Source: a bacterium (lineage in GTDB: Bacteria > Babelota > Babeliae > Babelales > Babelaceae). From it: a stretch of 64,000 nucleotides of DNA. Shown in pieces: positions 55,230-57,755 of the stretch. Numbering within the stretch: the stretch's first letter is position 1; each line of letters opens with the position of its first letter. Below the pieces are notes generated by a model. The model did no database searches. It was given only the letters and a program-made list of their open reading frames with translations, and had not been told where the DNA came from. The stretch spans positions 302,077 through 366,076 of the forward strand of contig JAEYYR010000002.1 in the NCBI GenBank assembly GCA_023428375.1. The letters are read 5' to 3'. Made by a program: the position numbers and the translations under genes.

Positions 55230-57755
55230 ATGAAAACAAGCAAAAATTCAATACGTGTTATAGGGGCACGAGAACACAATTTAAAAAATATTAGTGTCGA
55301 AATCCCTAAAAATACCTTAACGGTCATTACCGGGCCTTCTGGTTCGGGTAAAAGCTCTTTGGCTATGGATGTTATACATGCCGAGGGCCAGCGTCGTTAC
55401 CTTGAATCCTTATCTTCTTATGCGCGTCAATTTTTGGGCATGCCTAAAAAGCCTGATGTAGATTCAATTGAAGGTTTATGTCCTGCTATTGCTATTGATC
55501 AGAAAACGGTCGGTAAAAACCCTCGTTCAACGGTGGGTACTATTACTGAATTATATGATTACTTACGGGTGCTTTTTGCACGTGTAGGTGATGTATTCTG
55601 TCCAAATTGTCACAAAGCTATTCAAGCTGCATCACCTGAGGTGGTGGGTTCTCTCATTTTTGAACGTTATAAAGGTTCATTTGTAATGATAGGTGCGCTC
55701 ATTGCTCAGGAAAAGAAGGGTGAATTTGCGCAAGAATTAAAACAGCTTATTGATAAAGGTTTTACCAGATTTATTATTGATGGACAGCGAAAAATTGTTC
55801 GTTCGGCTGATGAAATTGTTGCATTGGGTCTAAAAAAGACCTATAAGCACACCATCATGGTGTTGATTGATGCGTGTGATGTTGAGAAAGGTGAATCAGC
55901 ACGAATCCATGAAGCAGTGGAAAAAGCATTTTCACTTTCAGGTACTTGTACGGTGCACATTGGTGAAAATTATGATGTGTATTCAGCGCAACGTATGTGT
56001 ACCACCTGTGGGTGGTCAGCGCCTGAATTAGAACCACGATTATTTTCATTCAACTCTCCTATTGGTGCGTGTAAAGCGTGTCACGGATTAGGTACCAGTA
56101 TCGAGTATGCATATAAATCTCAAGATGAAGAGGGCGATTTTAAAGAAGTGCCATGCGCTCAATGTGGTGGCAAACGATTAAATCCTCAAGCACTTGCGGT
56201 AAAAATTCAAGGTAAAAATATTTTTGAATTGAGTGAATTATCGCTCAAGCACGCGCAACAATTTTTCTCTACATTACAGCTTCCTGCATATCAAATGACG
56301 GTGGCGGACAAATTATTAAAAGAGATTAATAACCGTATTAATTTCTTATGTGATGTTGGATTAAATTACTTATCAATGAATCGTACTTCACGTACATTAT
56401 CTGGTGGTGAAGGACAACGTATTCGAATTGCAACACAACTAGGATCACAATTAAGTGGTATCGTGTATATTCTTGATGAGCCAAGCATTGGCTTACATCA
56501 ACGAGATAACGATCGTTTGATTGGCACCTTGCTGCGTCTACGAGATCAGGATAATACCGTATTAGTAGTCGAGCATGATCATGATACTATGATGGCATCA
56601 GACTATATCATTGATATGGGACCTGCCGCAGGTATATTGGGTGGTGCAGTGATTGCAGCGGGTACGCCAAGTGAAATTCAGAAGAATAAAGCTTCTTTAA
56701 CTGGTGCATATCTTTCTGGTCGTCGTTCTATTCCGTGTCCAACAAAGCGTCGTCAACCTAAAAGCTTTATTACGGTCCATGATGTATCGGCACATAATCT
56801 GAAGCATTTTGATGCTAAATTTCCACTCGGTGTATTGTGTGGTATTTCGGGCGTATCAGGCTCAGGTAAAAGTTCATTAATTATGGAAGAATTGGTGCCA
56901 GCAGTTAAGTCGGCATTTACTACAGGATCTCCTGCTGACGTAAGTAAAATTACGGGCATCGATACGCTTGAGAGTATGGTGGTAATTGACCAATCGCCAA
57001 TAGGCAGAACACCACGTTCAAACCCAGCAACGTATTTAGGTATCTTTGATGATATTCGTAAATTATATGCATCGTTACCTGAAAGTAATATCCGTGGATA
57101 TACCCCAGGTCGCTTTAGCTTTAACGTTGGTGAAGGTCGTTGTGCAACGTGTAATGGTGACGGTACGTTAACGATTTCTATGCATTTCTTGCCTGACGTT
57201 GTAATGACGTGTAACCGTTGCAAAGGATTACGTTATAATCCGCAGACGTTAGAGATTATGTATAAAGGCAAAAATATTGCTGAAGTATTAGCAATGTCTG
57301 CTCGAGAAGCGTTAGAATTCTTTGCGCACCATACCGCTTTAGCAAAACGTTTAGCATTGATGTGTGAAGTTGGTCTCGATTATGTAACCCTCGGACAATC
57401 TTCTACTACGCTTTCGGGTGGTGAGGCTCAACGTATTAAATTAGTTGATGAACTTGCAAAACGTGGTAGCAATACCTTGTATATTCTCGATGAACCAACG
57501 ACTGGTTTGCACACCAGTGATATTGAAAAATTATTACATGTGTTTACTCGCTTAGTTGATAAAGGTAATACCTTAGTGATTATTGAACATAATATTGATG
57601 TGTTAAAAACGATGGATTATCTCATTGACCTTGGCCCAGAAGCTGGCGAAGATGGCGGTTTCATTGTCGCGCAAGGTACGCCAGAAGTTGTCGCCCAATC
57701 AACAAAAAGCTATACTGCACGCTATATAAAACCGTTGCTGAATAAGGATAAATAA
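55230..57755 (+). CDS. uvrA: Excinuclease ABC subunit A; apparently lacks the insertion domain
   Basis: Walker A ITGPSGSGKSSLA; signature LSGGEGQRIRIA and LSGGEAQRIKL; Zn modules CPNC, CTTCGW, CKACHG, CAQCGG, CATCNGDG, CNRCKG. 841 aa. Only ~20 aa separate GACKACHGLG from CAQCGGKRL. Confidence 0.9.
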   Translation: MKTSKNSIRVIGAREHNLKNISVEIPKNTLTVITGPSGSGKSSLAMDVIHAEGQRRYLESLSSYARQFLGMPKKPDVDSIEGLCPAIAIDQKTVGKNPRSTVGTITELYDYLRVLFARVGDVFCPNCHKAIQAASPEVVGSLIFERYKGSFVMIGALIAQEKKGEFAQELKQLIDKGFTRFIIDGQRKIVRSADEIVALGLKKTYKHTIMVLIDACDVEKGESARIHEAVEKAFSLSGTCTVHIGENYDVYSAQRMCTTCGWSAPELEPRLFSFNSPIGACKACHGLGTSIEYAYKSQDEEGDFKEVPCAQCGGKRLNPQALAVKIQGKNIFELSELSLKHAQQFFSTLQLPAYQMTVADKLLKEINNRINFLCDVGLNYLSMNRTSRTLSGGEGQRIRIATQLGSQLSGIVYILDEPSIGLHQRDNDRLIGTLLRLRDQDNTVLVVEHDHDTMMASDYIIDMGPAAGILGGAVIAAGTPSEIQKNKASLTGAYLSGRRSIPCPTKRRQPKSFITVHDVSAHNLKHFDAKFPLGVLCGISGVSGSGKSSLIMEELVPAVKSAFTTGSPADVSKITGIDTLESMVVIDQSPIGRTPRSNPATYLGIFDDIRKLYASLPESNIRGYTPGRFSFNVGEGRCATCNGDGTLTISMHFLPDVVMTCNRCKGLRYNPQTLEIMYKGKNIAEVLAMSAREALEFFAHHTALAKRLALMCEVGLDYVTLGQSSTTLSGGEAQRIKLVDELAKRGSNTLYILDEPTTGLHTSDIEKLLHVFTRLVDKGNTLVIIEHNIDVLKTMDYLIDLGPEAGEDGGFIVAQGTPEVVAQSTKSYTARYIKPLLNKDK

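Follow-up and report, generated by a model that had tools for sequence, protein, structure and literature searches.

The 64,000-nucleotide stretch of DNA analysed here (positions 302,077 to 366,076 of contig JAEYYR010000002.1, assembly GCA_023428375.1; hereafter the window) comes from a Dependentiae (TM6) bacterium and carries a uvrA gene whose product has no insertion domain (ID) and is otherwise a UvrA of class I architecture. In bacterial nucleotide excision repair (NER), UvrA is the protein that senses damage first, and its mode of lesion recognition remains under debate. We read this protein as a working sensor for global NER and as the housekeeping UvrA of this bacterium, a reading to which we give a probability of roughly 70% from sequence comparison and published biochemistry. 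Natural UvrAs that keep the UvrB-binding domain and have no ID form a previously unrecognised class: in the paper library searched we found no paper on natural ID-less UvrAs, the wording "lacks the insertion domain" occurring only for engineered UvrA constructs, and none in which both Dependentiae and uvrA are mentioned. The class is not categorically new, and the surprise is lessened by engineered mutants, which had already proved this architecture capable of function. Evolution itself appears to have made this deletion repeatedly; at least one organism has such a protein as its only UvrA, with no Mfd to compensate, and the resulting proteins are natural reagents for asking what the ID contributes, which make the current mechanistic dispute testable.

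A class I UvrA without the insertion domain

The preliminary description of the window, made from its letters alone, had proposed that this UvrA keeps the UvrB-binding domain and the zinc (Zn) modules and has lost the ID, and phmmer, Pfam, the length of the linker inside Zn module 2 (Zn2), a MAFFT alignment and an AlphaFold2 model all bear this out. The phmmer alignment with G. stearothermophilus UvrA (Protein Data Bank, PDB, entry 2r6f) falls into two blocks (residues 7-293 with 23-306, and 299-841 with 414-960), leaving ~107 G. stearothermophilus residues without a counterpart; the alignment with T. maritima UvrA (3pih) falls apart in the same way (6-293 with 2-288, and 306-836 with 381-915), as does that with C. 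thermocellum UvrA (9gxk). Measured from the CxxCxGxG that follows FSFN to the next CxxCxG[RK], the Zn2 linker has 20 residues here; E. coli has 121, and ~40 UvrAs of other bacterial and archaeal phyla have 102-126. In the MAFFT alignment the gap falls precisely between the Cys pairs C277/C280 and C406/C409 of E. coli, the counterparts of C281/C284 and C309/C312 in the window protein. Pfam finds the UvrB-binding domain (PF17760) at residues 141-239 (E = 3e-16) and returns no match to the insertion/DNA-binding domain (PF17755) at E ≤ 0.1; in the E. coli UvrA control PF17755 is found at residues 289-398 (E = 1.7e-39). The AlphaFold2 model, built with 45 homologues (mean predicted local distance difference test score, pLDDT, 85.6), has at the position of the ID only a β-hairpin (289-293/304-308) with a low-confidence tip (295-302, pLDDT below 50). 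The preliminary description had also allowed that the missing residues might lie elsewhere or that the domain might be present in diverged form. A C-terminal truncation is ruled out, as the alignment reaches the last residue of the protein, and a diverged ID still in place is ruled out by the 20-residue linker and the modelled hairpin: the ~107 residues are missing at Zn module 2.

The open reading frame (ORF) begins with ATG and is intact, and both Walker A motifs, both signature motifs and all three Zn modules were found in its product. Class I UvrAs are its top matches among PDB chains (phmmer, E ~1e-279), with a score of 933 bits against 594.6 for 2vf7 and 484.1 for 7sh1, and Foldseek aligns the model to the class I structures 3uwx (the UvrA-UvrB complex), 2r6f and 3zqj with template modelling (TM) scores of 0.81-0.84. 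The protein passes the NCBIfam model TIGR00630 (1134.6 bits, cut-off 729.8) and, narrowly and in two stretches, the UvrA equivalog NF001503 (1177.8 bits, cut-off 1147). It is a single unit, scoring 664 bits against the 1809-position model of the chlamydial double UvrA (NF001885, cut-off 3054). Class II proteins miss the UvrB-binding domain and Zn module 1 and keep the ID; the presence of PF17760 and Zn module 1 in the window protein rules that assignment out, and a length of ~840 aa is by itself no proof of it. The contrast that the preliminary description drew with UvrA2-type paralogues, said to lack the UvrB-binding domain instead, is upheld by UvrA2 (2vf7) and Ecm16 (7sh1), neither of which has that domain. 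Public databases name ID-less proteins simply excinuclease ABC subunit UvrA, and this plain annotation conceals a distinct architectural class.

Conservation within Dependentiae and loss in other lineages

Four contigs, drawn from no fewer than three independent assemblies and reaching the length of a 1.12 Mb scaffold, carry a gene for exactly this protein. Its best 120 homologues in a collection of 5.8 billion proteins are 62-90% identical to it and 835-885 aa long, two longer proteins among them differing only by N-terminal extensions, and every source name given for them is Dependentiae, Babeliales or Babeliaceae. PF17760 is present in all 120 and PF17755 in none, and all have a Zn2 linker of 16-36 residues (median 29.5) which is variable in sequence and net acidic. 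The named Dependentiae genomes in GTDB are likewise ID-less (8/8, linkers of 23-32 residues), and so is the cultured Babela massiliensis, whose UvrA sequence in the supplementary material of Pagnier et al. 2015 shows a linker of 16 residues. Compared with the 90%-identical homologue, the ratio of nonsynonymous to synonymous substitution rates (dN/dS) comes to 0.047 over the full gene, with dS at ~1.5 near saturation and the direction clear, and 0.05 for residues 121-256, which hold the UvrB-binding domain. The Walker A and signature motifs, the twelve Zn-ligand cysteines, Tyr64 and Phe653 are invariant in 45 Dependentiae, and identity within the phylum is 62-68%. By these comparisons the gene is under strong purifying selection and appears functional, and the loss of the ID appears common to the whole phylum Dependentiae. 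The chance that we are looking at an artefact or a decaying gene is negligible, as the same protein recurs in independent assemblies with its frame intact, its best 120 homologues all share the architecture and dN/dS is low; assembly error, frameshift pseudogene and recent deletion are ruled out on these grounds.

A metagenome scan with the Dependentiae alignment returned mostly other phyla and one Dependentiae locus (L062), and exposed further ID-less lineages. On a GC-rich contig binned as Nitrospirota (L011:98-2617, + strand) lies a gene for an 839-aa UvrA which has PF17760, no PF17755 and a Zn2 linker of 16 residues; in L052, from Nitrospirales, the ID of UvrA is complete at 125 aa. The best 120 homologues of the L011 protein (P0275-P0394), named Nitrospirota or Thermodesulfovibrionales, are 802-864 aa long (all but one 833-864) and have PF17760 only, the linkers of this type being mostly 16 residues long with 38% Asp/Glu. 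The L011 protein is 51.5% identical to the window protein, is not its sister in the tree described below, and carries R216Q and E222D (E. coli numbering) at the UvrB interface, unlike the Dependentiae, where R216 and E222 are kept in all proteins checked. That the contig is a mis-binned Dependentiae contig is ruled out by its high GC content and by its place at the head of a 120-protein Nitrospirota/Thermodesulfovibrionales clade. Three more stand-alone ID-less UvrAs, on metagenome contigs of differing base composition, probably represent further independent losses: L065 (856 aa, GC 0.43, Zn2 linker of 10 residues), L070 (845 aa, on a 594 kb contig with GC 0.65, linker of 17 residues) and L074 (890 aa, GC 0.64, linker of 44 residues).

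Double-length UvrA fusions (~1,750-2,340 aa) are abundant and head the results of a phmmer search run exhaustively against 1.84 billion representatives. In many of them (P0121-P0270; loci L063-L073) one half has an ID of 100-125 residues and the other a linker of 6-44 residues, in either order: the ID half comes first in P0121, P0122, P0135, P0137, P0146 and P0166, and second in P0143 and P0168. Fusions of this kind have PF17760 twice and PF17755 once, and several fusions are named Planctomycetota. They are ruled out as members of the chlamydial NF001885, scoring 1050-1341 bits against the cut-off of 3054. A fusion with a single ID would give a pseudo-dimer with one DNA clamp.

To place these proteins we used a neighbour-joining tree (813 columns, ID columns removed, 100 bootstraps), a quick distance tree whose deep branches are not to be over-read. 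In it the Dependentiae UvrAs are monophyletic (100% bootstrap) and nested among single-length, ID-bearing UvrAs, the nearest of which is 54.6% identical, and the clade is separate both from L011 and from ID-less fusion halves, which rules out common ancestry with the latter. These separate positions point to at least three independent losses of the ID, and probably more. The preliminary description had called the combination of domains unusual; this holds against every characterised UvrA, yet the combination is not rare in nature, being found in Dependentiae, in Thermodesulfovibrionales, in further lineages and in one half of many fusions.

Repair partners and a putative global damage sensor

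With E. coli probes, tblastn detected neither uvrB nor uvrC nor mfd across the window and the 10 kb past each end, or beside uvrA in nine other Dependentiae loci. In Dependentiae, uvrA is unlinked to its partner genes; in many other phyla uvrB adjoins it. The COG counts published by Pagnier et al. 2015 list UvrA 2, UvrB 1, UvrC 1 and Mfd 0 for the complete genome of B. massiliensis and UvrA 1, UvrB 1, UvrC 2 and Mfd 0 for the TM6 draft, and in the same table Mfd (COG1197) is present in 34 of 47 other small genomes; Chromulinavorax destructans is also reported with a uvr system (PMC6561590). The second Babela entry under COG0178 (UvrA), gene_605, is a 105-aa C-terminal fragment with an archaeal best match (Pagnier et al. 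2015), so that B. massiliensis has no full-length UvrA besides the ID-less one, a situation that the preliminary description had thought possible for the genome of the window. Because these related genomes have no Mfd, the Dependentiae UvrA probably does the global search itself, with no delivery by a stalled RNA polymerase.

The same inventory bears on a different reading, in which the ID-less UvrA would be specialised for transcription-coupled repair, Mfd delivering it to lesions and its own discrimination being dispensable. The retained domain binds Mfd as well as UvrB, and in E. coli UvrA Δ290-400 (Manelyte et al. 2010), an engineered protein without the ID, global NER was hit harder than Mfd-dependent repair and the template-strand bias was stronger (PMC3025350). 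We nevertheless judge this reading very unlikely, given an Mfd count of zero in both B. massiliensis and the TM6 draft against its presence in most other small genomes of that table, and given that neither the window with its flanks nor the Dependentiae loci yielded any Mfd-like sequence.

Starting from the observed architecture, conservation and partner inventory, we infer the activity of the protein from its anatomy and from published work. We propose that an ancestor of the phylum would have cleanly excised the ID from between the two halves of Zn module 2, which a short, variable and acidic hairpin would now close. The ID-less UvrA would still dimerise and contact DNA via its signature-II and ATP-binding-II domains, and would tell damage apart kinetically, through ATP-driven conformational changes that involve the ATPase cycle, the wedge tyrosine and the Zn module 3 (Zn3) hairpin, the site then being passed to UvrB for verification and to UvrC for incision. 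What would have been given up is the ATP-independent clamp of two IDs round straight duplex DNA. In cryo-electron microscopy structures from C. thermocellum the two IDs clamp straight DNA in the nucleotide-free state and release it when ATP binding bends the DNA (PMC12796330), and in E. coli the clamp improves discrimination against an excess of undamaged DNA (PMC3025350). This 2025 structural work credits an ATP-driven wedge with discrimination and calls for experiments on the ID (PMC12796330). The roles of the wedge tyrosine (C. thermocellum Y62; PMC12796330) and of the Zn3 hairpin phenylalanine (PMC12796330, PMC7835731) are described there and elsewhere; by chain offset in the PDB alignments, Y64 of the window protein would be the equivalent of Y62, and F653 that of C. 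thermocellum F755. The SSYARQF motif that contains the tyrosine is found in 118 of the 120 Dependentiae proteins and in 114/120 of the Thermodesulfovibrionales type, and the Zn3 hairpin motif, searched with a strict pattern, in 103/120 of the Dependentiae. In a second model of recognition, that of Genta et al. 2025, the flipped base or lesion lies in a hydrophobic pocket of one ID (PMC11985968). By its conserved residues, the Dependentiae UvrA appears to keep every element of the wedge model and none of the ID-pocket model.

The engineered proteins indicate what such a UvrA can do. Both E. coli UvrA Δ290-400 and the B. stearothermophilus ΔID protein (Pakotiprapha et al. 2008, as cited there) still allowed a lesion in a 50-bp duplex to be incised; the E. 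coli protein discriminated less well between damaged and undamaged DNA and was slow on plasmid substrates (PMC3025350). Of the E. coli residues mutated by Manelyte et al., most are kept in Dependentiae (K37, K646, R216, E222, G502, R712, R724 and R730); among the DNA-binding arginines R712, R724 and R730 the sole exception is R730H in L005, and the position of R722, which is variable in other phyla too, holds Asn or Lys. As to why the clamp should have been lost, we can only speculate that a small genome presents less undamaged competitor DNA; genome reduction is not required for the loss, because the Thermodesulfovibrionales are free-living.

An unlikely alternative is that the function of the ID is supplied in trans, by a domain with a gene of its own, an altered UvrB or some other DNA-binding protein. 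Pagnier et al. flag the Babela UvrB in their supplement as closer to archaeal/eukaryotic than to bacterial sequences, which suggests a possible xenologous replacement of the partner, and in the window a 273-aa ORF without a family match (57758..58579, + strand), probably co-transcribed with uvrA, begins 2 nt past the uvrA stop. A 274-aa ORF occupies the same position in the 90%-identical relative L144; no counterpart lies beside uvrA at nine more distant Dependentiae loci, which rules the ORF out as a conserved UvrA partner, L144 excepted. A profile of 33 IDs, which finds its controls at ~1e-40, gave a best E of 0.55 among ORFs of ≥40 aa in the ~84 kb of the window and flanks and in the nine Dependentiae loci, ruling out an ID encoded separately nearby. 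The variable and acidic linker is no DNA-binding replacement, and the independent losses in unrelated lineages make a single common compensating factor unlikely.

The UvrA fold has also been put to other uses: paralogues with altered domain sets, such as DrrC, Ecm16 and UvrA2, have roles outside NER (PMC10192343), and the window protein might by analogy have left repair for another DNA-related role, for example in drug resistance. We regard this as quite improbable. Those class II proteins have no UvrB-binding domain and depend on the ID (PMC10192343), which is the opposite pattern. The window protein retains the UvrB-binding domain with its interface residues intact and under strong purifying selection, passes the equivalog cut-offs and nests within class I, and in Babela it is represented by the only full-length UvrA, alongside UvrB and UvrC.

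Several points weigh against a working global sensor. E. coli Δ290-400 performs global NER poorly on DNA of plasmid length (PMC3025350), Genta et al. 2025 place lesion recognition in the ID and describe the domain as essential for DNA coordination (PMC11985968), and Ecm16 deprived of its ID binds no DNA (PMC10192343); full activity of an ID-less UvrA without Mfd would not be predicted from these model systems. The PF17760 match is weaker in the window protein than in E. coli (59.7 vs 132 bits), and the evidence for uvrB and uvrC comes from two other, published Dependentiae genomes. Global sensing by the housekeeping UvrA remains the reading that we favour. A stronger version of it, that ID-less UvrAs are fully competent global sensors, fixed in a phylum apparently without Mfd, and that the ID is an accessory and not the recognition site, we put forward tentatively, holding it somewhat less probable than its contrary. 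If it were true, UvrB and a unit made up of the ATPase-driven wedge, the Zn3 hairpin and signature-II would form the core of NER recognition, and the recurrent losses and one-ID fusions would mark the number of IDs as evolutionarily tunable.

Feature map, neighbourhood and known systems

The positions of the gene and of the features of its product are given in Table 1.

Table 1. The uvrA gene and the mapped features of its product, in window coordinates.
Feature	Residues	Position	Strand	Remarks
uvrA coding sequence	841 aa + stop	55230..57755	+	class-I-type UvrA without insertion domain
Walker A, proximal ATPase site, GPSGSGKS	35-42	55332..55355	+	Lys41 = E. coli K37; invariant in 45 Dependentiae
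SSYARQF with "wedge" tyrosine	Y64	55413..55433	+	Y64 invariant in 45 Dependentiae
Zn module 1	C124, C127, C257, C260	55599..56009	+	encloses UvrB-binding domain (~128-256); Cys invariant
Zn module 2	C281, C284 ... C309, C312	56070..56180	+	brackets the ID in other UvrAs; invariant in clade
Linker TSIEYAYKSQDEEGDFKEVP	20 residues	56094..56153	+	stands in place of the ~120-residue ID
ABC signature motif I, LSGGEGQR	390-397	56397..56420	+	invariant
Walker A, distal ATPase site, GVSGSGKS	541-548	56850..56873	+	Lys547 = E. coli K646
Zn module 3 and β-hairpin	C638, C641, MHFLPD 651-656, C661, C664	57141..57227	+	Cys and F653 invariant
ABC signature motif II, LSGGEAQR	728-735	57411..57434	+	within signature-II DNA-binding surface; invariant

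The surroundings of uvrA are AT-rich and hold many ankyrin-repeat genes, four of which lie in a row 3′ of uvrA (427, 395, 416 and 207 aa; 59081..63574, + strand, and beyond, L143 11842-12465). Such genes are typical of Dependentiae and other protist-associated bacteria, and Babela has 126 ankyrin-repeat proteins (Pagnier et al.). A scan for promoters and terminators round uvrA did no better than on shuffled sequence. Other repair genes nearby are a recJ (DHH/DHHA1/RecJ_OB) in the window at 3606..5339 (+) and a full five-domain mutS ~3.8 kb beyond its end (L143 12569-14968); their retention speaks against a general decay of repair capacity in this genome. Three further ORFs of 435-459 aa, at 8351..11043 (-) and 33121..34476 (-), have no Pfam match at E ≤ 1e-5 and may encode lineage-specific proteins.

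Set beside known systems, the window protein is closest to the class I UvrAs (E. coli; 2r6f/3uwx; 3pih; M. tuberculosis 3zqj; 9gxk), with which it shares the tandem ABC ATPase, the three Zn modules, the UvrB-binding domain, the signature-II DNA surface and the Zn3 hairpin at ~52-55% identity outside the ID, and from which it differs in having a 20-residue hairpin where they have an ID (PF17755) of ~110-120 residues. The engineered ΔID mutants have had the same domain removed at the same place and keep the UvrB-binding domain; they are laboratory constructs with impaired discrimination on long DNA, whereas the protein described here is natural, kept by purifying selection across a phylum and apparently the sole UvrA in cells without Mfd. 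Class II proteins (D. radiodurans UvrA2, 2vf7; Ecm16, 7sh1; DrrC) resemble it in fold, in length (~800-840 aa) and in having lost one accessory domain, but the loss is the reverse one, the UvrB-binding domain being absent together with Zn module 1 and the ID being kept and needed. In the double-length fusions with a single ID, which are ~1,750-1,960 aa long, an ID-less unit is covalently joined to an ID-bearing one, and the neighbour-joining tree indicates that their losses were independent. The ID-less UvrAs of Thermodesulfovibrionales, at ~839 aa, likewise have PF17760 only and an acidic linker, there of 16 residues, but come from GC-rich, free-living anaerobes.

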